Under the pieces are notes generated by a model. The model searched no databases, was not told where the DNA came from, and saw nothing but the letters and a program-made list of their open reading frames with translations. DNA of 39,903 bases, taken from a virus (lineage: Duplodnaviria > Heunggongvirae > Uroviricota > Caudoviricetes). Below, one piece after another: positions 541 through 35,071 of the stretch (position 1 is the first letter of the stretch; every line of letters begins with the position of its first letter). Position numbers and translations under genes: made by a program. The stretch lies in IMG/VR virus record IMGVR_UViG_2654587728_000015. One strand, 5' to 3'.

Positions 541-1578
541 TTAACGCTTATCCGCCACCAGTTTGAGCGCGTGTTCCAGCACATTAATGTCTGCACCCGC
601 TTTATGGGCATTTTCACTTAAATAACGCCGCCACTGCCGCGCGCCAGGAATACCCTGGAACAAGCCCAGCATATGCCGGGTAATATGGCCGAGATACGTA
701 CCCTGGCTGAGTTCACGCTCAATGTACGGATACATGGCGCGCACTACCGCCACCGGATCAGCATCAGTATCCGAGGAACCAAAAATCTCTCGGTCTACCG
801 CCGCCAGAATACCCGGATTCTGATACGCCTCGCGCCCGACCATCACGCCATCCATATGTTGCAAATGCGCTTTAGCTTCTTCCAGCGACTTGATACCACC
901 GTTAATCGACATCGTCAGATGCGGAAAGTCACGCTTCAGTTGATACACACGCGGATAATCGAGCGGCGGGATCTCACGGTTTTCTTTCGGACTTAACCCA
1001 GAAAGCCAGGCTTTACGTGCGTGGATGATGAACATCTCACACTCACCTTTGCCGGAAACGGTGTTGATGAAATCGCAGAGAAATTCATAGCTGTCCTGAT
1101 CATCGATGCCAATACGCGTTTTCACCGTCACCGGAATCGACACCACATCGCGCATCGCTTTCACGCAGTCGGCAACCAGCTGCGCATTACCCATCAGACA
1201 CGCACCAAACATGCCGTTCTGCACCCGGTCAGACGGGCAGCCGACATTCAGGTTGATCTCATCGTATCCACGCGCTTCTGCCAGCTTCGCACACTGTGCC
1301 AGCGCCGCCGGATCGCTACCCCCGAGTTGCAACGCTACCGGATGTTCTTCTTCACTGTACGCCAGGTAATCACCTTTACCGTGAATAATCGCCCCTGTGG
1401 TCACCATTTCGGTATACAGCAACGTATTGCGGGAAAGCAGACGCAAGAAATAACGGCAATGTCTGTCCGTCCAGTCGAGCATAGGAGCAATGCTAAACCG
1501 AGAATTCCAGTAAACACCAGTTTTTTCAGGCATCACGCTGGTTTGATTAATTTTTTGTGTTTCATGATTATCGTGCAT
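541..1578 (-). CDS. dusA: tRNA-dihydrouridine synthase A (host gene; 5' end is the known target of DusA-associated integrases)
   Basis: 345-aa ORF with Dus family motifs ([31 protein letters not shown]); divergent integrase immediately upstream. Confidence 0.9.
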
Positions 1579-1610
1579 TTTTGAACATTTCAGGCTATTT
1601 TTCTCGCGTT

Positions 1611-1646
1611 AGGTTCCCGCTCAGGTTCCCACGTTTTATGGGAACC
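1611..1646. promoter_or_regulatory. Three copies of GGTTCCC (two direct, one inverted) between dusA start and int start; candidate integrase-binding or int-promoter control sites within the attL region
   Basis: Motif copies at ~1612, ~1624 and inverted at ~1640, read directly. Confidence 0.3.
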
Positions 1647-1666
1647 CGAAATAACGAGGTCGTGTA

Positions 1667-2764
1667 ATGGCGTACTATAACATAGAGAAACGACTAAAAT
1701 CCGATGGCACACCACGCTATCGCTGTAATGTGATTATCAAAGAAAAAGGTGTTATCACTTACAGGGAAAGCAAAACATTCCCTAAACATGCTCATGCCAA
1801 AACATGGGGCACACAGAAAGTGATGGAATTAGATCTATATGGCATTCCATCATCAAATGCAGTTGACGGACTTACAGTCCGTGACTTACTACACAAATAT
1901 TTAAATGACCCAAATGCCGGAGGTAAAGCAGGCCGTACTAAAAGATATGTGCTGGAACTGCTTATGGATAGTGACATCTCCGCGATCAAACTATCTGAAC
2001 TGACAGAAAATGACGTAATTGAACATTGCAGGCTAAGAAACAACGCTGGCGCAGGTCCAGCAACAGTCAGCCACGATGTTAGTTATCTTGGCAGTGTTCT
2101 GGATGCGGCCAAACCTGTATACGGAATTAATTACACATCAAACCCGGCGAAAAGTGCTCGTCCATATCTACTTAAACTTGGTTTGATTGGTAAATCAAAC
2201 CGTCGTAATCGTAGACCAGCATCTGATGAACTGGACATGCTCATTGAAGGCCTTCAACAACGATCTACTCATAAATGCTCAAAAATTCCGTTCGTTGATA
2301 TCCTCAAATTTTCTGTGTGGTCCTGTATGCGAATCGGAGAAGTATGCCGGTTACGATGGGAAGATCTCGACCAGGAACAAAAATCTATACTCGTAAGAGA
2401 CAGGAAAGATCCACGCAAAAAGGAAGGCAACCACATGAAAGTAGCCTTGCTTGGGGAAGCCTGGGATATCGTCCAACGACAGCCCAAAAAATCGGAATTC
2501 ATTTTTCCATATAACAGCACTTCTGTTACTGCGGGATTTCAGAGGGTAAGAAGCAAATTAGGTATTAAGGATCTGCGATACCATGATTTGCGTAGAGAAG
2601 GGGCAAGTCGCTTATTTGAGGCTGGTTTTAGTATTGAGGAAGTAGCCCAGGTTACAGGGCATCGTTCATTAAACGTGCTATGGCAGGTATATACCGAACT
2701 GTATCCGAAATCTTTACATAATCGTTTTGAAGAGCTCCAAAGGAGCAGAAATAAGACCCCTTGA
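1667..2764 (+). CDS. int: Tyrosine-type site-specific integrase (DusA-associated integrase family likely)
   Basis: 365-aa ORF; C-terminal catalytic region with R...HDLRR...GHRS...Y pattern; located at prophage end divergent from dusA; SD ACGAGG 7 nt upstream of ATG. Confidence 0.85.
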   Translation: MAYYNIEKRLKSDGTPRYRCNVIIKEKGVITYRESKTFPKHAHAKTWGTQKVMELDLYGIPSSNAVDGLTVRDLLHKYLNDPNAGGKAGRTKRYVLELLMDSDISAIKLSELTENDVIEHCRLRNNAGAGPATVSHDVSYLGSVLDAAKPVYGINYTSNPAKSARPYLLKLGLIGKSNRRNRRPASDELDMLIEGLQQRSTHKCSKIPFVDILKFSVWSCMRIGEVCRLRWEDLDQEQKSILVRDRKDPRKKEGNHMKVALLGEAWDIVQRQPKKSEFIFPYNSTSVTAGFQRVRSKLGIKDLRYHDLRREGASRLFEAGFSIEEVAQVTGHRSLNVLWQVYTELYPKSLHNRFEELQRSRNKTP

Positions 2765-2812
2765 CACTGTTTATCCATACAGTTAAAAATAATACTGTAT
2801 ACAAACACAGTA
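2761..2812 (+). promoter_or_regulatory. SOS-regulated promoter: -35 TTGACA followed by two tandem LexA boxes (CTGT-N8-ACAG) upstream of dinI-like gene
   Basis: CACTGTTTATCCATACAGTT (~2765..2784) and TACTGTATACAAACACAGTA (~2793..2812) both fit LexA box consensus TACTGT(AT)4ACAGTA. Confidence 0.7.
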
Positions 2813-2825
2813 TAGAGGGACTTTT

Positions 2826-3074
2826 ATGCGTATTGAAATCTGCATAGCCAAAGAAAAAATGACTAAAATGCCAACCGGTGCTGTGGATGCGTTAAAGGAA
2901 GAATTAACCCGACGCATCAGTAAACGTTATGACGATGTAGAGGTGATCGTAAAAGCCACCAGCAACGATGGCCTTTCTGTTACACGCACCGCAGATAAGG
3001 ATTCTGCAAAAACTTTTGTTCAGGAGACTCTGAAAGATACCTGGGAATCTGCTGACGAGTGGTTTGTTCACTAA
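2826..3074 (+). CDS. dinI: DinI-like DNA-damage-inducible protein
   Basis: 82-aa protein with conserved DinI C-terminal motif ([15 protein letters not shown]); LexA boxes upstream; SD AGAGGGA. Confidence 0.8.
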
Positions 3075-3217
3075 TTAACACGTAAAATCGGTAACGGCTG
3101 GAAATCATTCAATAATCGCACTATCGAAAGTTCGCCAGCCAGCCGCAGCACGTTCTTGCATACGACGTGGCTGCGGCTTCCAACATTAGACAAATAACTC
3201 TTTAAATTGCTTTTAAA

Positions 3218-3781
3218 TTATTTCGTTTGAATGCCAGTAACAGGAAATCGTTTATATAGGGTTGATAGCCCAACGTTATAGATACGTGCAACATAACGCC
3301 GTGATTTCCCTGCCGCTATGAGCGCTCCCATCTGTTGCCACTGCTCGTCGCTAAACTTCGGTCTACGCCCACCAATCCGGCCTTTGGATCTGGCAATAGC
3401 CAAACCAGCTAAAGTTCGCTCGCTATTCAAATCAGATTCATACTGCGCAGCAGAAAGAATATTACGGAAATTATAGCGACCACTTGCTGTTTTCAGGTCT
3501 ACGCCATCTGTAATACTCCGAAAATTAACACCTTTTTCGTGCAGATTTTGAAACATCAATAGCGCATGCAGCACATTTCTCCCTATCCGATCTAACTTCC
3601 AGACAATCAACTCATCTCCACTTTTCATCACCGTAATTAATTCCTTTAACACAGGGCGATTAGCTGTTCTGCCACTGGCATATTCTTCATAAATTCGCTC
3701 ACAGCCAGCTGACTCAAGTGCAAGACGTTGCAACTCTGTATCCTGATGATTTGTTGATACACGAACATACCCGTAAATCAT
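3218..3781 (-). CDS. Serine recombinase, DNA invertase of the Gin/Pin/Hin family
   Basis: 187-aa ORF starting YGYVRVSTNHQDTELQ with catalytic serine, resolvase core and C-terminal HTH (VGLSTLYKRF); position after tail fibre and tfa as in Mu gin / e14 pinE. Confidence 0.9.
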   Translation of the reverse strand: MIYGYVRVSTNHQDTELQRLALESAGCERIYEEYASGRTANRPVLKELITVMKSGDELIVWKLDRIGRNVLHALLMFQNLHEKGVNFRSITDGVDLKTASGRYNFRNILSAAQYESDLNSERTLAGLAIARSKGRIGGRRPKFSDEQWQQMGALIAAGKSRRYVARIYNVGLSTLYKRFPVTGIQTK

Positions 3782-3786
3782 GAGTG

Positions 3787-3813
3787 CTTCTCCTGTTGTA
3801 AAAACAGGAGAAG
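3787..3813 (-). promoter_or_regulatory. Perfect 10-bp hairpin (CTTCTCCTGT/ACAGGAGAAG) whose 3' arm contains the invertase Shine-Dalgarno; candidate translational sequestration element
   Basis: Inverted repeat read directly; AGGAG lies inside the stem, ~8 nt upstream of invertase ATG; no U-tract after the stem. Confidence 0.35.
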
Positions 3814-3949
3814 AGGCGAAATATCACCTGATTCAGAAAAATATTTCAAAGGTTCGTTTCGAACAGGAGGAGTAGCGGAGGGCTATGTTGCTTAGTTTGA
3901 AAATAGCTGGTCTTGCTGATGCGCATTGATGTAGCAAGACCAGTATGGT

Positions 3950-4318
3950 TTAAAGTTCCGGGATGACAGGCCAGTTAACATGCTCAGGGTCGGTTGTTAC
4001 ATCAACAGCCTTAACCTGATTCTTATATAAAAGCCACGCCGAAAGTTTAGCTCTGTTGGCATCGCTGATTTCACCCAGCATCAGCTCTGTGCGCCAGTCG
4101 AGCATAATTGCATCAGCGGCGGACAGTAATCGCTGTCGCTCATTTTCAGCAGCCTGGATGAGTTGTTCATGAGTCGGTGGGGGATTAATAATTGCCATAG
4201 CCTCACTTCTGGTGATTGGCACAAGCCCTTCTTTGATAAAAGCATCCTGTGTGCCATACGCATCGTAGGCATATACGACGTTATTTTCATCTTTGTAATG
4301 CTTCATCATTGTTATCAT
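3950..4318 (-). CDS. Tail fibre assembly protein (Tfa/U-like chaperone)
   Basis: 122-aa ORF with Tfa motifs ([11 protein letters not shown]...PTHEQL...[16 protein letters not shown]); ATGA start/stop overlap with tail-fibre gene. Confidence 0.85.
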
Positions 4319-5295
4319 TTTTTATCCACCTCTACCCAGGTAACATCTGACACTGTTCCTGAAAACTGCTGCACAATATAGGTCGCACCGGCAGGAACCA
4401 TGAATGCGATAGTTGCTCTTTGCCCTGCAAGATTTGTTGTCTGAGAGCCGCGAAAATTAGCCGAATTACCATCCACATTAACGTTGGCGCTCAGAAATGA
4501 ACTACCGTCAGACAGCACCGCATTGACGCTTACAAATATGGCGAAAGACTGGCTGTTGGTGTATACGACACCGAGATTTCTAGATTTCATTCCGCATTGA
4601 CCAAACAACCCTTTCATATCTGAATAGTTTTGTGATGCAGCAAGTGATGATGCAGCAACACCAGATTCCGTCGATGTTCTGGAATCAGATACGCGGATAA
4701 TTCCCTTGTTTGTTGGGGTCGCATCATTGGTCTTGCCTTGCAACGCCTGTATATCCGCATAATTCATCGCTGCCGCTTTTGCTGTTGCAGCAAGCGTTTC
4801 AGATTCGGATACCCTTGATGATGTAAGTTGAACAATTCCTTTCTGTGTCGTAGTTGAATCCTGAGTTTTGTTTTGCAAAGATTTTATGTCCGTATAGTTT
4901 TGCGCGACAGCATTAGCTGTGGCTGCAATATCCTCTGCACCCGATACCCGCGATGACGTTAACCGGACTAAACCCACCTGTGTTGTTGATGCGTTTTTAA
5001 TACCAAGGTTTTCGAGAGCCGTTTTCACCGTGCCATCCGATTTGATATCACCAAACGGATTCTTGCGGCTTAACAGCAGCGCACGAAGCGCGGTAAGCAG
5101 CTGATCGTGCCGCGCCTTCTCCAGACTGGCACCGGATGCCTCCACCACGCTGCAAAGCTCCTCCTGCAACATGTCAAAGTAGTCATCATCCAGATCGGTG
5201 GCAGGCGTGCCGGTCTGGGGGTTACCACGGGTAAAACCGTTCTTACCCGCGCCGAACTTATCCTTCTGCGCGGTTTTCGTGTCTATACGATGCAT
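4315..5295 (-). CDS. Tail fibre protein (Mu S / e14 Stf-like)
   Basis: 326-aa ORF between gp48-like gene and tfa; internal tandem repeats; C-terminus typical of side tail fibres. Confidence 0.8.
4606..4989 (-). repeat. Three diverged tandem ~40-aa coding repeats inside the tail-fibre gene
   Basis: Repeated units [38 protein letters not shown] / [38 protein letters not shown] / [34 protein letters not shown]. Confidence 0.7.
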
Positions 5296-7895: not shown

Positions 7896-8974
7896 CAGAA
7901 CGGGTCCTCCTGTACTCTGGCTTTTTTCTTTTTCCGCGCGCCGGGGGCTTCGGGTTCAGGCAGATAAGCATCAGGTGGGCCGACACGGATTTCCGTCAGG
8001 GTGCCGTTCTGGTCCTGAGTAAACGTGACTTCCGAAACAAGCAGTTCGGTATTGTCGAAACCACAGACCGGATCGAAGACAATCACCCGCTGGTTGGGCT
8101 GCCACAGCGTACCGTTACCCTGTCGCCAGCCCTGCACCACATAGGTGGTTTCATCCGTCCGCGCCGCCCGTTGTCGGGCTTCAAAGTCAGCACGCGCAAT
8201 ACAGCCTGCCCCCGTGGCCTGCCCTGTCTGCCTGATATACATCGGACGGTAACGGGCAATAAATGCGTCCTCTGTGCGGGCCCGCAGCGCGGTGGTGGTG
8301 GCCTCACCGAAATCATCGTCGTTTCCGGCACGCTGCCCCGCCACCTGGTAAACAGAAAACCGCTCCCGGATACTCTTCTCCGTATCGCAGGAAAGGATGT
8401 TTTCCCCGAGTACCAGCGCGGTATGTGCCCGCGTTGAGCCAATACCGCCAATCACCAGCCTGCCGTGCGGGTCGTCGTAAGCCAGTGCCTGCTGCTGACC
8501 GAGTATTTTGTTGATCACCTCAATCACCGTTTCGCCGTGATCGGGCTGGACGTCAGGAATAACACCCGACGGCGCACCGTTGTTCACCACCTCAATGCCG
8601 AAAGGCGCAGCAAGCGCCTGCGCTATCTGTACCAGCGATCGTCCGTTAAACTGTGTCGGTTCGGCTGCACAGTCAATCAGGTCAGCGGTCAGACTGCGTC
8701 CGGCAATACCGGTGCTGACCGAACGGGCATCGTAACGAACGGGCGTCGCCTCCACCCAGCCGGTGATCACCAGCTCATCACCAATCAGCACCTCCACTTT
8801 TGAACCGTTTTTAATGCGCGGCTGAAGCGTGGTGATACCCTCATCTCCCGGCCACTGGCGAGTGATCTCCACACTGAAATCCCGCGCCAGCCGTTCAATA
8901 CCGGCACCGATGCGCACCGATGTCCAGCCATTCCACTCCCGGCCATTTACCCGTAGCGTGACATTGTCGTTCAT
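7895..8974 (-). CDS. Baseplate hub / late control D-like tail protein (Mu gp44-like)
   Basis: 359-aa ORF following DNA-circulation-like gene; order as in Mu. Confidence 0.7.
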   Translation of the reverse strand: MNDNVTLRVNGREWNGWTSVRIGAGIERLARDFSVEITRQWPGDEGITTLQPRIKNGSKVEVLIGDELVITGWVEATPVRYDARSVSTGIAGRSLTADLIDCAAEPTQFNGRSLVQIAQALAAPFGIEVVNNGAPSGVIPDVQPDHGETVIEVINKILGQQQALAYDDPHGRLVIGGIGSTRAHTALVLGENILSCDTEKSIRERFSVYQVAGQRAGNDDDFGEATTTALRARTEDAFIARYRPMYIRQTGQATGAGCIARADFEARQRAARTDETTYVVQGWRQGNGTLWQPNQRVIVFDPVCGFDNTELLVSEVTFTQDQNGTLTEIRVGPPDAYLPEPEAPGARKKKKARVQEDPF

Positions 8975-10299
8975 TGCACTGGCACCTTCAGAGGGATCAC
9001 CGGCACAAAGCCGGGATGCGTAATGGCATTACGCCGGATAATGTCCGCATCACGCGCCGCGTTATCAAACCAGGTCGCCGCCAGCACCAGCGCGGGTAAA
9101 ACCTCATCCGGCGTGCGCTGAATGATCCGTGCAGACTGTTCAAGGCGCGTGTTGATATCCGCATTCAGATCTGCTTTCACCCGGCGCAGCGCCAGAAACA
9201 GCGCATCACTGGTTGTACGGGACAACTCCTTATCAATTGCCGTATTCAGTGTGTCGCGAATGTCAGTCAGTTCTTCCCACGTCGGCAGGTCAACTGTGTT
9301 TTTCACCGCCGGTGCATTGTTCAGTGCCGGATGCGTGACGGAAGGCCAGCCAGTGCTCTGCGCAGGTGTTGTTGCCTGCCCCACTGCGGAATTCTGCATC
9401 ACCGCGGAAGTTGTTGGCGCAGGCAATCGGGTGACGGCATACGCCGCTTCGCTGATTGCGGTCGTACGAAGGGTGCTGGCAACCACGTTACGCTGCTGCG
9501 TCGCCGTGGCGGTGGTTTTACTGTCCGTTTTCCAGACGCCGCGCGGTTGCAGATCGCTGCCGAGGCTGACACCGGAAAGCGTTTTGATCATGGTGACCAG
9601 GTCGCTGGCGTTACCATAAAGGCGTTTCCCGGTACGCCACATTTTCTGCACCTGCTCAACGAAATTTTTGCCTGACGATGGCGGCGGCAGAAGTACCGAG
9701 ATATCCCCCTGCAACAGCCTGGCGGCATCCGATACGGCAGAATCCACCACTTTCATCGCATCAGAAACATACCCCAGCATTATGCTGGCATTACCGATAA
9801 CGTCGTTCTGCACGAAATCCGCCACGCCATCGATACTGAAACCGCTGAAGCTGTCACTGATGCAGTCATCCAGTGCAGAACAGGATGACATCAGCGTCTG
9901 CGCCGTCGCCGCACCTGATGTGGGGTAAGAGAGTTCTCCTGCTTCGACAAACTTCAGGTCAAAGCGGACAATACGCCCTTCACTTTTCGATGTGCTGACC
10001 CGAACTTCCCCGTCAACACAGACTTTCAGCTCACCATATGTCGGGTGGACAAGCGTGCCGGGACCGGGTTTATTCAGCGCTTCAATCAGGCGATCGCGCT
10101 GGTCAAAGCAGTCATCTCCCACCACATAAGCTGTGATGGACGGGCGGAAAGTGACTTTTCCCAGATCTTCGGTATAGGGCTTGTCGCGGTTCGGGTATTC
10201 ATGTGTTTCCACACGGCGACCGGTTCCCGCACTTTCTTCTTCAACCTTAAACGGTACGCCGCGAAATGACGCATCCTGAAGCCTGTCTTTCCACGTCAT
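8971..10299 (-). CDS. Tail/DNA circulation protein (Mu gp43-like)
   Basis: 442-aa ORF immediately downstream (in transcription order) of tape measure region; N-terminus MTWKDRLQDASFRGVPF typical of this family. Confidence 0.7.
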   Translation of the reverse strand: MTWKDRLQDASFRGVPFKVEEESAGTGRRVETHEYPNRDKPYTEDLGKVTFRPSITAYVVGDDCFDQRDRLIEALNKPGPGTLVHPTYGELKVCVDGEVRVSTSKSEGRIVRFDLKFVEAGELSYPTSGAATAQTLMSSCSALDDCISDSFSGFSIDGVADFVQNDVIGNASIMLGYVSDAMKVVDSAVSDAARLLQGDISVLLPPPSSGKNFVEQVQKMWRTGKRLYGNASDLVTMIKTLSGVSLGSDLQPRGVWKTDSKTTATATQQRNVVASTLRTTAISEAAYAVTRLPAPTTSAVMQNSAVGQATTPAQSTGWPSVTHPALNNAPAVKNTVDLPTWEELTDIRDTLNTAIDKELSRTTSDALFLALRRVKADLNADINTRLEQSARIIQRTPDEVLPALVLAATWFDNAARDADIIRRNAITHPGFVPVIPLKVPVQ

Positions 10300-10314
10300 A
10301 TAAACTCCGGATAC

Positions 10315-10370
10315 AAAAAACCCGCCAAATCTGCTTTGTCAGTTATTTACATCGCAGAAGATGTGGCGGG
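10315..10370 (-). terminator. Candidate terminator after the moron gene (imperfect long hairpin CCCGCC...GGCGGG followed by TTTTTT on minus strand)
   Basis: GC-rich imperfect inverted repeat plus 6-T run between moron stop (10390) and gp43-like start (10299). Confidence 0.35.
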
Positions 10371-10389
10371 AACCTAATATTTTTAATTA

Positions 10390-10884
10390 CTATCTGAGTT
10401 GAACATCAATGGAATAAATATCACCACTCTTTATAAATTTAGAATCTGTCCTTTCATCAAAAGATTCAAATGACTGTACCTTTAAAAACTTTTTCATTTT
10501 ATTTTCAAAAATACTTTCATTAACACCAGTTAAATACTTGAACGCTCTACCAGCAAGGACCTCATTACTTAAATCCATTGTGTTTTTATTGTCTTTGAAA
10601 AACCAAACAATAACCTTTTGTGGGCATGATGGATTATAAACAGATATATAAAACTGCGGCTCATATTTTTCATCAGCGTCATCACTAAGCATTTCTTCAG
10701 AAGATAATTCTCTTCTGAATTCATATTGCCGCTTAGTTATTCCTTCATCCTTTATTATCTCTTGCTTAACTGGTGCAATACCTATAGAAGAGATTAATTC
10801 TGACTCATTAAAGCTGAACTTACACTCCTCCGCGGCCAAGTTAAAAGATAAAAGTGCAGATATAAAAAAAACAAAGATACGCAT
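10390..10884 (-). CDS. AT-rich moron: secreted/periplasmic protein of unknown function with N-terminal signal peptide
   Basis: ORF 10390..10902 with best RBS at internal ATG 10884 (MRIFVFFISALLSFNLAAEE...); hydrophobic signal peptide without lipobox; strongly AT-rich relative to flanking tail genes. Confidence 0.7.
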   Translation of the reverse strand: MRIFVFFISALLSFNLAAEECKFSFNESELISSIGIAPVKQEIIKDEGITKRQYEFRRELSSEEMLSDDADEKYEPQFYISVYNPSCPQKVIVWFFKDNKNTMDLSNEVLAGRAFKYLTGVNESIFENKMKKFLKVQSFESFDERTDSKFIKSGDIYSIDVQLR

Positions 10885-10904
10885 AATCATCCCTTCAATC
10901 ATTT

Positions 10905-10945
10905 GTAAGGAATGATTATATTAACTACTTAAAGCTGAAAACCCA
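10905..10945 (-). promoter_or_regulatory. Candidate moron promoter (perfect TATAAT -10 on minus strand ~25 nt upstream of RBS; weak -35)
   Basis: TATAAT hexamer (plus-strand ATTATA at ~10915..10920) in AT-rich intergenic region between tape measure stop and moron start. Confidence 0.3.
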
Positions 10946-10983
10946 AATTATGCCAGACAAAAACACATTAATCATTTTGTACA

Positions 10984-12816
10984 CTACCTGAACCGCGTAT
11001 AGCCAACATCATGGCTGACATCAAAACCGCTGGATCGCGTTTCCATAACCCGCATACCCGGAGGCGAATTCACAAAAGATACCTTGATCTCACCATCAAC
11101 TTTTGGCACAGAAGCTTTGTTAATCATGAAGGGATTCGAGCCTGTGGCATCGGAGGCGTTGTTTGCCTGAGCCGGATCCACCACCGGATAAGGAGTGTAT
11201 CCCCGTGGCGGTATTCCCGTCCCATAAGCATCATAAGCACCCGCGCCCCACTGCGCCGAGTTAATGGCATCGACCGTGTCACCGGAACTGTCGGTAAACC
11301 ATTCAATAATCGGCTTCAGCTTATCCCACATATCCTGAAACCACTTAACAACCGGTCCCCAGTTATTGATCACCATCCCAAGCGGCGACCAGGCAAAAAC
11401 CTTCTTCAGAAGTTCCCAGCCTGCCTCAAAATAAGGACCAATGGTTTCCCAGAGCTTCTTGAAATAAGGTCCGACAACATCCCAGTTAGTGATAATTAAT
11501 CCCGCAGCCAGAGCAATCGCCGTCGCAATCATGCCAATCGGCGTCATCGACATAATCCTGCTGACAATACTGATGGCACTGCCCACGCCCATCAATCCCA
11601 GTTTCAGAATCGCAAGACCGGCAGCAAGCCCGACGACGCCGCGAATAACCCGGGGATTTTCATCCGCAAACTTCGTGAATTTCTCCCCCAACTCCCCCAG
11701 CCATTGTGTGATATTTTTAGCGTCACCAGAAAATGCGCCGCCAATAGCCGCAAGGCCGTTAGTTGCGGTCCCTGTCATTGCCTCCCACAGGTTGGACAGC
11801 GTACCAAGCTGTGCCTGAACACGTTTATTCAGGCTGGCCTGTTTATTCATCTTCTGCTGGATCTGATCGTAGCCATCCTTTCCTTTATCGATTAGTGCAT
11901 TGACCACCTGAAGGGTTTCGGCATCATCACCAAATATTGCCTTAAGTACACCTGTTCGCTTAACGTCGGTCAGTTTTCGCAGCTTTGCCAGTTGCCTGAA
12001 CATGTTATCAAGACCGCCAAAACTTCCTTTGCCGTCAGTAAAATCGAGCTGTACCCCGAGTTTCTGGCGGGCCATAACTTTATTAACGTCCCTGATTTTC
12101 TTAACGCTTAATCCGGACTGGATAACTTTTCGCAGGGCATTACCTGCCGACTCCCCGTTCATCCCCATCTGATCCATCATGACGCTGATGGGGGCAAGGC
12201 TCTGTGCAGCCTGAAGACCGTCCTTGTTCACCATCTTCAGAACAGAACTGGTTTTAGTGAAGAAGGACAACATGTTGGTATCGTCAACGCCCAGATAAAA
12301 CGCCTTCTGGATAGTGTCGAACAGCCCCATCATGTCTTCTGACGCCGTTCCGGTAGCATCCTGCATCTTTGCAGCAAACTCAGCAGCCGCTTCCGGTGTT
12401 TTTTTCAGTTGTACCGCAAGATAAGCTGTCGCTTTACCCACACCGCCAAGAATGTTTTCTGCCGGGATCCCCTGACGCACCAGCATCTGCATCATGTTCT
12501 GGAAATCAGCCGTTGTACCGGGTAGCTGGTTACCCAGGCCAATAGCCAGTTTATTGATGTCCTGAAAGCGCTTTCCAACCTCGCCGTTCGCATCCATCAT
12601 GGCGACTTTCAGCCCGGTGGCGGCGTTTTCCTGATCGGCATAAGATTTCAGGGAAAGCGTCAGACCCGCTGCCAGTCCGCCACCAAGCGCCAGCCCACCC
12701 TGTGACGCTTCTTCCGCCTGGCGTTTAAATCCCCGGATTTTCTTTTGCATTTTCGACAGCGCGGGAGAAAGCCTGTCGACACCGGTGATCAACGCCTTAA
12801 GCTCAAATTCCGCCAT
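10984..12816 (-). CDS. Tail tape measure protein
   Basis: 610-aa ORF with long helical N-terminal part and glycine/hydrophobic C-terminal region; follows tail chaperone with frameshift. Confidence 0.85.
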   Translation of the reverse strand: MAEFELKALITGVDRLSPALSKMQKKIRGFKRQAEEASQGGLALGGGLAAGLTLSLKSYADQENAATGLKVAMMDANGEVGKRFQDINKLAIGLGNQLPGTTADFQNMMQMLVRQGIPAENILGGVGKATAYLAVQLKKTPEAAAEFAAKMQDATGTASEDMMGLFDTIQKAFYLGVDDTNMLSFFTKTSSVLKMVNKDGLQAAQSLAPISVMMDQMGMNGESAGNALRKVIQSGLSVKKIRDVNKVMARQKLGVQLDFTDGKGSFGGLDNMFRQLAKLRKLTDVKRTGVLKAIFGDDAETLQVVNALIDKGKDGYDQIQQKMNKQASLNKRVQAQLGTLSNLWEAMTGTATNGLAAIGGAFSGDAKNITQWLGELGEKFTKFADENPRVIRGVVGLAAGLAILKLGLMGVGSAISIVSRIMSMTPIGMIATAIALAAGLIITNWDVVGPYFKKLWETIGPYFEAGWELLKKVFAWSPLGMVINNWGPVVKWFQDMWDKLKPIIEWFTDSSGDTVDAINSAQWGAGAYDAYGTGIPPRGYTPYPVVDPAQANNASDATGSNPFMINKASVPKVDGEIKVSFVNSPPGMRVMETRSSGFDVSHDVGYTRFR

Positions 12817-33859: not shown

Positions 33860-34552
33860 ATGAACATAGGAAATCGAGTCAGACAACTTCGCCAGGCGAA
33901 GAACATGAAAATCGCCGATCTCGCTGAAGCAATAGGAGTGGATGCGGCGAATATCTCGCGCCTCGAAACAGGTAAGCAGAAACAATTCACTGAACAAGCC
34001 CTGAGTAATATTGCCAGGAGCTTAGGTGTTGATATTGCTGATCTCTTTACCTCAGACCTCAAAAGTAATACTGTATGTAAAAACAGTATTAGTGAGGATG
34101 TTGCGCAGGTGAAGGATGTATTCCGTATTGAAATGCTGGATGTCAGTGCCAGTGCGGGAAATGGCCTTATCCAGGGCGGTGATGTCATTGATGTGATTCA
34201 TGCCATTGAATACAGAACTGATAATGCTGTATCGATGTTTGGTGGACGACCAGCAAATCACATTAAAGTTATCAACGTTCGTGGGGACAGTATGTGTCCA
34301 ACCATTGAGCCAGGAGATCTCATCTTCGTTGATATCAGTATCAATCAGTTTGATGGGGATGGTATATATGTATTTGGTTTTGATGATAAAATTTACGTCA
34401 AACGACTGCAAATGATACCTGATAAACTGCTGGTAATTTCTGATAATCAGATTTACCGCGAATGGGGAATTACCAGCGAAAACGAACACAGGTTTATGGT
34501 CTTTGGAAAGGTCTTAATCAGTCAGTCACAAACCCTTAAGCGACACAATTAA
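33860..34552 (+). CDS. cI: CI-like prophage repressor (HTH plus LexA-like S24 autopeptidase domain)
   Basis: 230-aa ORF; N-terminal HTH (IADLAEAIGVDAANISRLE), C-terminal GDSM serine and KRL lysine of S24 fold; no obvious SD, consistent with leaderless PRM-type transcript. Confidence 0.85.
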   Translation: MNIGNRVRQLRQAKNMKIADLAEAIGVDAANISRLETGKQKQFTEQALSNIARSLGVDIADLFTSDLKSNTVCKNSISEDVAQVKDVFRIEMLDVSASAGNGLIQGGDVIDVIHAIEYRTDNAVSMFGGRPANHIKVINVRGDSMCPTIEPGDLIFVDISINQFDGDGIYVFGFDDKIYVKRLQMIPDKLLVISDNQIYREWGITSENEHRFMVFGKVLISQSQTLKRHN

Positions 34553-34574
34553 CCCCCTACCTCAACATCAATTA

Positions 34575-34598
34575 GCCACCAGAAGGTGGCTTTTCATT
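34575..34598 (+). terminator. Rho-independent terminator after cI (GCCACC-AGAA-GGTGGC then TTTTCATT)
   Basis: Perfect 6-bp GC stem and T-run immediately 3' of cI stop. Confidence 0.6.
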
Positions 34599-34608
34599 AC
34601 TCACGCTA

Positions 34609-34646
34609 TTGCATATCTCGCAATAAAATACTTGCACGTTACGCAA
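34609..34646. promoter_or_regulatory. OL-like operator pair: two perfect TTGC-N7-GCAA sites (~34609..34623 and ~34632..34646), likely overlapping a rightward PL-type promoter
   Basis: Same half-site architecture as OR sites; located upstream of the rightward early operon. Confidence 0.55.
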
Positions 34647-35071
34647 TTTCATTTTATCTTTCTTTCCAGACCAACAAACAAGGTCCTGACAAAATTTGGT
34701 TGTAACACGGCGTATGGCACATGCGTCGTTAGCGGTCTGGGGACGTTAAAGGGGACAATCCACTCCTTGCTCGGGCAAACAAACCAGGTAGCCGGAATGT
34801 GCAAGTCAATGAGGATGCTGATAAGACGCCTAACCAGCGTGGCGATTCGGTTTGACGCCTGGGAAGAGACCAGGGTGCAACGATGAGGGCATTTATGGAA
34901 CCTCGACAAAGTGTGGTGCCGTAACTGGCTAAGTGCTCTCAGCGTTGTGGTAATCCGCGAAATGGCGCGGCGGTAAGTATGGCGGGGTTACTCTTTCCCC
35001 GTTGAGGACACCGGATTGTCAGGTTGACCATACGCCTGAGTGACAACCACACCACAACAGCCACTGCTTTG

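Follow-up and report, generated by a model that had tools for sequence, protein, structure and literature searches.

Morons are a main route by which prophages alter their hosts, and most of them lack annotation. The gp15 moron of phage HK97 was reportedly described by Cumby et al. in 2012, and Juhala and Hendrix are said to have provided the moron prototype. Cor is an outer-membrane lipoprotein that inactivates FhuA, and both Ltp and the T4 protein Spackle are exported exclusion proteins whose targets, met outside the cytoplasmic membrane, are components of the incoming tail, the former on the tape-measure protein (TMP) and the latter on the gp5 lysozyme. Here, we analyzed a stretch of 39,903 nucleotides (nt) from a member of the Caudoviricetes (IMG/VR record IMGVR_UViG_2654587728_000015), referred to as the window throughout, and focused on an AT-rich block that separates the TMP gene from the gene for a Mu gp43-like tail protein. 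Our results indicate that the gene within this block, designated X, is the cargo of a single-gene moron slot between the TMP and gp43-like genes of SfV-like temperate myophages.

HK97 gp15 is presented in PMC3594210 as a proven exclusion protein that blocks genome entry in a manner dependent on the tail region of the incoming phage. The same source describes Cor of phi80, HK022, and N15 as a prophage-encoded envelope protein that has its gene in or close to the tail region and excludes other phages. A lipoprotein nature and an exclusion role are reported for Ltp of Streptococcus thermophilus phage TP-J34 (PMC3952083). Cargo hotspots have been reported in P2-like phages at Z/fun and old/tin (Rousset et al. 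2022, PMC9122126; iLund4u preprint 10.1101/2024.10.15.618418).

Like gp15, X is a single small gene beside a TMP gene in a tail operon, with deviant composition, candidate expression signals of its own, and a predicted envelope product that would be made from the prophage. The two differ in both setting and product. In its siphovirus, gp15 is located between the genes for the tail chaperone and TMP, whereas X is flanked by the TMP and gp43-like genes of a myovirus. The gp15 protein is YebO-like, resides in the inner membrane, and has chromosomal homologues, whereas X is predicted to be soluble and exported and has no relatives outside the slot. There is no sequence similarity between them. Cor had been offered as a parallel in a preliminary description of the window, drawn up from its letters before any database search; the analogy fails on the lipobox, which X lacks, and on sequence, as X matches no Pfam family at E-values up to 1.

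The locus is made up of the following features, positions being those of the window.

10300..10983, no strand assigned: AT-rich cargo block filling the TMP/gp43 junction (G+C content; empty and alternative states in relatives).
10984..12816, minus strand: TMP gene, the upstream flank (PF10145, E = 5e-27; RefSeq annotation).
8971..10299, minus strand: Mu gp43-like "DNA circularization" tail protein gene, the downstream flank (PF07157, E = 4e-34; RefSeq annotation).
10390..10884, minus strand: gene X, encoding a precursor of 164 amino acids (aa) (RefSeq WP_001219112.1, phrog_8976; homologues, RefSeq).

The phage represented by the window is a temperate myophage of the SfV-like type that combines an HK97-type head with a Mu-type tail, and it encodes an integrase, a Pin-like invertase, a lysis cassette, and a Q-type antitermination protein (ydfT). 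Downstream of TMP, the gp43-like gene is followed by a gp44-like hub gene. The neighboring tail and baseplate genes all overlap or abut, and TMP/gp43 is the sole uncoupled junction in this run. Because no other junction of the tail-baseplate run lacks translational coupling, insertions would be tolerated at this point.

The preliminary description had singled out an AT-rich block of ∼0.7 kb between the TMP and gp43-like genes, and base composition confirms it. The block has a G+C content of 0.319, compared with a mean of 0.517 (standard deviation 0.052, minimum 0.424) for 56 non-overlapping 684-nt intervals elsewhere (z = −3.84), and the lowest-G+C interval of that size in the entire 39.9-kb sequence begins at 10295-10298. 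The surrounding genes range from 0.52 to 0.59, against 0.32 for the block. The G+C content at third codon positions (GC3) is deviant as well, at 0.27 in X versus 0.56-0.66 in the TMP, gp43, gp44, and sheath genes. X is the only gene in the block and is encoded on the same strand as the flanking tail genes. It bears two of the classical marks of a moron, namely an extra gene between genes that are adjacent in relatives and a deviant base composition.

The TMP and gp43 flanks are present in ∼1,100 of 5,426 complete E. coli genomes (∼20%). The junction between them was found in at least seven states and contains, when filled, either X or one of six mutually unrelated small genes. The states are as follows.

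Empty: spacer of 60 base pairs (bp), compared with 684 bp in the window; ∼540 E. coli genomes and phages SfV, SfII, and SfI.
X: 164 aa, signal peptide; 85 E. coli genomes.
176-aa cargo: N-terminal membrane anchor; 178 genomes.
bPH_1 cargo: 125 aa, PH domain; also in Edwardsiella phage EPP-1.
OB-fold cargo: membrane-anchored, tRNA_anti-like, on the opposite strand; 72 genomes.
Lipoprotein cargo: 225 aa, lipobox LLGGC.
162-aa cargo: signal peptide; 101 genomes of a sister TMP lineage that includes ST131.

The accessory nature of the gene, proposed at the outset, is borne out by the 60-bp spacer that occupies the junction in SfV, SfII, SfI, and the E. coli genomes with the empty state. These three Shigella phages have flanks ∼96% identical to those of the window and are devoid of X, and the phage isolates SKA5, with 99% identity across the X locus, and AH07 carry it. 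The empty form also exists in the sister TMP lineage, where the spacer measures 24 bp. Instead of the one-off insertion into an otherwise gapless module that had been envisaged, X is one allele of a hypervariable slot. On one side, homology between the slot states breaks off precisely at the TMP stop codon; on the other, it does so within a hairpin 5′ of the gp43 ribosome-binding site. A repeat search of the region for signs of transposition revealed no convincing target-site duplications or terminal inverted repeats, and an Rfam scan of the region returned noise only.

The alternative cargos, represented in other E. coli genomes by our loci L003, L004, L005, L007, and L017, have features in common with X. 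All slot cargos are AT-rich (G+C 0.34-0.42, GC3 0.26-0.40), and five of the six alternatives are envelope-targeted, among them two with an N-terminal membrane anchor, one with a signal peptide, and one lipoprotein. The OB-fold cargo matches phrog_8545, annotated as "superinfection exclusion Sie-like" (E = 1.5e-49). Profile-versus-sequence comparisons detected no remote homology between X and the other six cargos. The arrangement is reminiscent of the P2 hotspots, where unrelated alternative cargo occupies a fixed site between conserved phage genes, in one case tail genes, in near-identical prophages. The P2 sites contain mostly cytoplasmic and often multi-gene defence systems known to defence databases, whereas the TMP/gp43 slot contains single small genes that are mostly envelope-targeted; PADLOC recognized none of the five scanned (X and four alternatives, the 162-aa cargo not being among them). 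The literature that we searched on the TMP/gp43 slot of SfV-type phages, on X, and on periplasmic exclusion proteins contained nothing specific on the slot or on X.

The location of X within the tail module and its synteny across genera could suggest a role in tail structure or assembly. We regard this as highly improbable. X is absent from about half of the relatives and replaced by unrelated genes in others, so that most of them lack it, and it matches no structural-protein family. In addition, its cleavable signal peptide would export it from the cytoplasm, the site of tail assembly. These data argue against a Mu-type tail structural protein, which would be cytoplasmic and present in every phage that has this tail module.

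Confinement to the slot is not peculiar to X. Both flanks were seen at 77 of 80 loci of the 176-aa cargo and at 19 of 20 loci of the 162-aa cargo, the remainder being cut by contig ends. The lipoprotein cargo (phrog_1353) behaves differently from X in that it does occur in other phage types: 9 of its 80 IMG/VR loci are in the TMP/gp43 slot, and 50 are directly 5′ of unrelated siphovirus TMP genes (Pfam TMP_2, TMP_3, and TMP_4). Adjacency to TMP genes therefore recurs across tail types.

In the siphoviruses, the lipoprotein gene sits between the tail chaperone and TMP genes (L170-L249; e.g. L183 2471-3142 and L214 2501-3181). Beside the lipoprotein morons of other phages we noticed a DUF4258 plus helix-turn-helix pair that resembles a toxin-antitoxin system (L214 1631-2397), as well as a VasI-like protein related to type VI secretion (L200 3303-3812); both are further cargo at TMP-adjacent sites. 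The bPH_1 cargo is ∼90% identical, as judged by eye, between an E. coli prophage (L004 1364-1741) and Edwardsiella phage EPP-1 (L068 1340-1717), and the flanking tail genes of the two show only ∼71% DNA identity. This points to a recent cassette transfer or to unusually strong constraint on the bPH_1 cargo, in contrast with X, which diverges together with its flanks.

The X family is very small, with 16 clusters among 5.8 billion, and when 1.84 billion representative proteins were searched exhaustively with a profile, the 12 that were retrieved all belonged to it. Only 2 of 50,697 phage records encode X, namely SKA5 and Pantoea phage AH07, whose gene 16 is an X homologue with 42.5% identity in the same slot. 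All 47 X loci recovered by scanning IMG/VR and GTDB are in the TMP/gp43 slot, as are six more from contig look-ups that include Kosakonia and metagenomes. Of the 47, 45 have the two flanking genes in place, and the other two, truncated by a contig end, have the single flank that the contig covers. Among the homologues found, none is in a chromosomal or other mobile context outside SfV-like tail modules, and no spread between unrelated phage types was encountered, every homologue occupying the same slot of the same phage type. X at 100% identity is also encoded by CP077666.1, a 38,926-bp Salmonella enterica record filed as a plasmid. As its length fits the phage genome, the record probably represents an SfV-like phage in circular or excised form; it also shows that an SfV-like phage crosses between E. 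coli and Salmonella.

The divergence of X keeps pace with that of its neighbors. Identities of 100, 95, 62, 57, and 42% in X are accompanied by 100, 98, 76, 68, and 56% in TMP and by 100, 99, 72, 67, and 52% in gp43, respectively. The low GC3 of X (0.25-0.45) is held in every lineage, and its dN/dS ratio of 0.10-0.18, similar to that of the flanks, indicates purifying selection, with no sign of positive selection in these values. Given that X is found in the same slot everywhere, that its identity tracks the flanks, and that its low GC3 persists, we conclude that X has been inherited with the tail module over the long term. Horizontal acquisition, which had been read from the AT-rich composition, the expression signals, and the signal peptide, is thus not borne out for recent time. 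From these comparisons, X appears to evolve somewhat faster than the structural genes and to have been lost or replaced in many lineages. Together, these data show that X is a real gene under purifying selection, dispensable for the virion, and confined to the slot.

Two features define the 5′ end of the coding sequence.

10890..10896, minus strand: Shine-Dalgarno (SD) sequence GAAGGGA, 5 nt 5′ of the ATG at 10884 (sequence).
10831..10884, minus strand: signal peptide of the Sec (signal peptidase I) type, comprising residues 1-18; cleavage is predicted at A18/E19 (read from the sequence; homologues).

As initially described, X is a 164-aa open reading frame preceded by a ribosome-binding site. 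The start at 10884-10882 (MRIFVFF...) is used by all homologues and agrees with the RefSeq call, which is also 164 aa, and the homologues have GGGGGA or AGGAG in place of GAAGGGA. Starting from the first ATG, the frame would extend over 10390..10902 on the minus strand and encode 170 aa; this start (ATG 10902) was rejected, as it lacks both an SD sequence and conservation and falls within a hairpin.

The proposed signal peptide without a lipobox was also upheld, as read from the sequence. The N terminus consists of M-R, 13-14 hydrophobic residues, and x-A-A/E-E-C, a pattern that 16 of the 17 family members share. In the homologues, A18 hardly varies, and a small or aliphatic residue occupies position −3. 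Neither a lipobox nor a twin arginine was found in X, and no homologue among the 17 family members has a lipobox. The cleavage region reads ...FNLAA/EEC, which places a cysteine at +3 of the predicted mature end, unlike the +1 cysteine of a lipobox. The predicted mature protein comprises 146 aa with a mass of 17 kDa, an isoelectric point of 4.9, and two invariant cysteines, C21 and C87. X is therefore predicted to be a Sec-exported, non-lipidated, acidic 17-kDa alpha+beta periplasmic protein, its cell-envelope location being a purely in silico assignment from the conserved signal peptide and the two invariant cysteines.

There is no solved structure of a relative of X. An AlphaFold2 model built from a 13-sequence alignment (predicted local distance difference test score, pLDDT, 88; predicted template modeling score 0.79) has seven strands and several helices arranged in an alpha+beta fold that starts past residue 20, and confidence is low only at residues 1-20 (pLDDT 48-53). 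Foldseek found no match to this model in the PDB below E = 0.05, and a search of BFVD gave one match, a gut-virome protein with a template modeling score of 0.63 and an unreliable label. Sequence searches were equally uninformative: a PDB search returned a single spurious 35-residue match, scans of Pfam (E up to 1), NCBIfam, and PADLOC assigned no family, and the sole PHROG match was phrog_8976, whose function is not annotated. Homology to Cor, gp15/YebO, SieA, Imm, Sp, Ltp, or Llp was not detected in the Pfam, PHROG, and PDB sequence and fold searches. These results are in agreement with the earlier statement that X has no recognizable relatives of known function.

An open reading frame in an AT-rich spacer, devoid of the G+C bias of its flanks and annotated as nothing but "hypothetical," might also have arisen by chance. 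The probability of this explanation is vanishingly small: the low dN/dS ratio, the 39 residues that are invariant across 13 homologues at 55-66% identity, and the AlphaFold2 model rule it out, and the ribosome-binding site is conserved.

X could instead be a lysogenic-conversion or host-fitness factor unrelated to phage exclusion, such as a stress or colonization factor or a periplasmic protein, inhibitor or immunity-like, that counters lysozymes, colicins, or type VI effectors. We consider this rather unlikely. The restriction of the X family to SfV-like tail modules would be unusual for a general fitness role, X matches no known inhibitor or immunity family, and its fold matches are at noise level.

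We then turn to the 3′ side of X, where a further feature is found.

10313-10370, minus strand: intrinsic-terminator-like hairpin (CCCGCCA...TGGCGGG) with a T-run, directly 5′ of the gp43 ribosome-binding site.

The preliminary description had assigned this terminator to the inserted gene. The hairpin and T-run are indeed present; their assignment to X is not tenable. Directly 5′ of the gp43 SD sequence, the empty junction has a homologous GC-rich hairpin with a T-run, as do all states with a co-oriented cargo gene (e.g. L002 1301-1360 and L069 1210-1248); in the SfII record, this element bears the annotation of a putative rho-independent terminator. At the hairpin position 3′ of X, ACCCGCTTCGGCGGGTTTTTTT is common to all X lineages, the copy in the window having an enlarged loop. 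As junctions without any cargo have the hairpin too, the terminator is part of the phage backbone and no signature of X insertion. By analogy with lambdoid phages, late transcription would be expected to read through it, given the Q-type antiterminator encoded in the genome. We note that this places a conserved terminator in the middle of the tail operon, which it presumably divides unless transcription is antiterminated.

On the 5′ side, two features concern the expression of X.

10915..10920, minus strand: −10-like TATAAT, 30 nt 5′ of the X ATG, without a good −35; predicted transcription start near 10907.
10882..10920, minus strand: 17-bp RNA hairpin in which the TATAAT arm pairs with the SD sequence and AUG of X (ΔG = −16.5 kcal/mol, z = −3.75).

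The TATAAT element reported earlier is present at this position, though it is not significant alone: 16% of shuffles of the 99-nt spacer contain one. Compared with the structural genes, we noticed an enrichment among the slot cargo genes, 9 of 11 of which have a −10-like hexamer 28-40 nt 5′ of the start, often with an extended TG, versus 1 of 18 structural gene starts of that operon (combined Fisher p = 4e-5). In AH07 and in locus L064, X begins 12-16 nt past the TMP stop codon, and the −10-like hexamer is inside the 3′ end of the TMP gene. It is only through this comparison with the other cargo genes that the TATAAT gains weight, and on this basis X likely has a promoter of its own.

In the hairpin, the −10 hexamer starts the 5′ arm, and the SD sequence and AUG constitute the 3′ arm; 1 of 200 shuffles folds equally well. 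The calculated probability that the segment from SD to AUG is unpaired is 0.04 in read-through RNA versus 0.38 when the upstream sequence is shuffled, and it is 0.49 in the 23-nt leader that starts 7 nt past the hexamer. We hypothesize that, in the lineages that have it, this hairpin limits translation of X to transcripts from its own promoter. A precedent is the fold-back inhibition of IS10, in which the transposase ribosome site is hidden only on transcripts entering from outside, while the element's own promoter starts inside the hairpin. The hairpin of X is similarly predicted to hide the ribosome site only on read-through RNA, the gene affected in IS10 being that of a transposase.

These expression signals also bear on whether X could be a late-phase helper of the phage's own lytic cycle, exported and co-expressed with the tail genes, which might stop sibling injection into infected or lysing cells or tune envelope breakdown. 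The strict synteny with TMP and gp43, with X diverging in step from 100% to 42% identity, would fit such a role, as would the short distance from the TMP stop codon in AH07 and L064 and the position of X upstream of the junction terminator, which makes it part of the TMP-side transcription unit. Against this, about half of the close relatives have no gene here and are nevertheless viable phages (SfV, SfII, and SfI), the −10 element is retained even where it is forced inside the TMP gene, and the read-through RNA of the E. coli lineage is predicted to hide the SD sequence and AUG. We therefore think that a late helper function is unlikely.

Arguing from context, we tentatively propose that X might be a periplasmic superinfection-exclusion factor that blocks phage entry, a possibility to which we give somewhat less than an even chance. 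An exclusion role is suggested because the alternative cargos are mostly envelope-targeted, one of them being labelled Sie-like, and because the lipoprotein allele is located, in siphoviruses, where HK97 has its gp15 moron, whose product is proven to act in exclusion. In this proposal, X would be transcribed from its own weak promoter, defined mainly by the −10 element ∼30 nt 5′ of the ATG, and the transcript would stop at the backbone terminator before gp43. Late transcription modified by the Q-type antiterminator would pass through the terminator, and in the E. coli lineage the hairpin between the −10 region and the SD sequence would block translation of X on the late read-through RNA. X would hence be made mainly in the lysogen, bind a component ejected into the periplasm by the incoming phage or a host factor that this component needs, and block genome entry while the surface receptor is unaltered. 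This mechanism corresponds to the mode of action of Ltp and Spackle.

Several observations weigh against this proposal. The guilt by association rests on the database label of one neighboring allele, and the adjacency of cargo to TMP may have a simpler cause in an uncoupled junction that tolerates insertions. The 12-16-nt spacing between TMP and X in AH07 and L064 resembles that of an ordinary late operon member. The promoter candidate has no −35, a consensus promoter scan found nothing on the strand of X and one weak plus-strand match inside gp43, and the X lineages used in the −10 enrichment test are not fully independent. Of eight X lineages, three have a strong SD-hiding hairpin (the window, L059, and L053), one has a weaker version, and four have none.

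A more far-reaching version of the exclusion proposal would make the slot a hotspot for envelope exclusion proteins and X a new-fold periplasmic blocker of the TMP, gp43, or tail tip of incoming contractile tails, made only during lysogeny owing to a promoter that lies within an anti-SD hairpin, as a moron counterpart of the fold-back inhibition of IS10. The linkage to TMP, which the lipoprotein allele likewise shows beside unrelated siphovirus TMP genes, would then reflect co-evolution of the blocker and the entry machinery. We regard this extended version as doubtful.

Outside the locus, the integration site adjoins dusA (541..1578, minus strand) and is followed by the integrase gene (1667..2764), the region spanning 541-2764; this arrangement agrees with the RefSeq annotation of the identical locus in strain 23CRST032. 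After the X block, the next-lowest G+C patch is at ∼34022-34705 (G+C 0.40) and corresponds to the cI-like repressor/immunity region, and another low-G+C patch (1501-5000, G+C 0.41-0.45) contains the integrase, the Pin-like invertase, and tail-fibre ends.

Overall, the moron interpretation of the preliminary description was right in kind, and it had to be corrected with respect to the slot, the terminator, and recent import. X has a predicted signal peptide, it is not a universal structural gene, and its G+C content differs from that of its flanks. It is a fairly ordinary phage moron, and our findings extend rather than overturn current views. The site of action of X is probably the cell envelope, and its most plausible targets are other phages. 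X represents an uncharacterized family of exported proteins without a relative of solved structure, and the slot that it occupies is part of a very common prophage type of E. coli, Shigella, and Salmonella. The seven or more small genes of this slot provide a compact list of candidate entry blockers missed by defence databases. The predicted translational insulation, if true, would explain how a moron residing in a strong late operon escapes lytic over-production.

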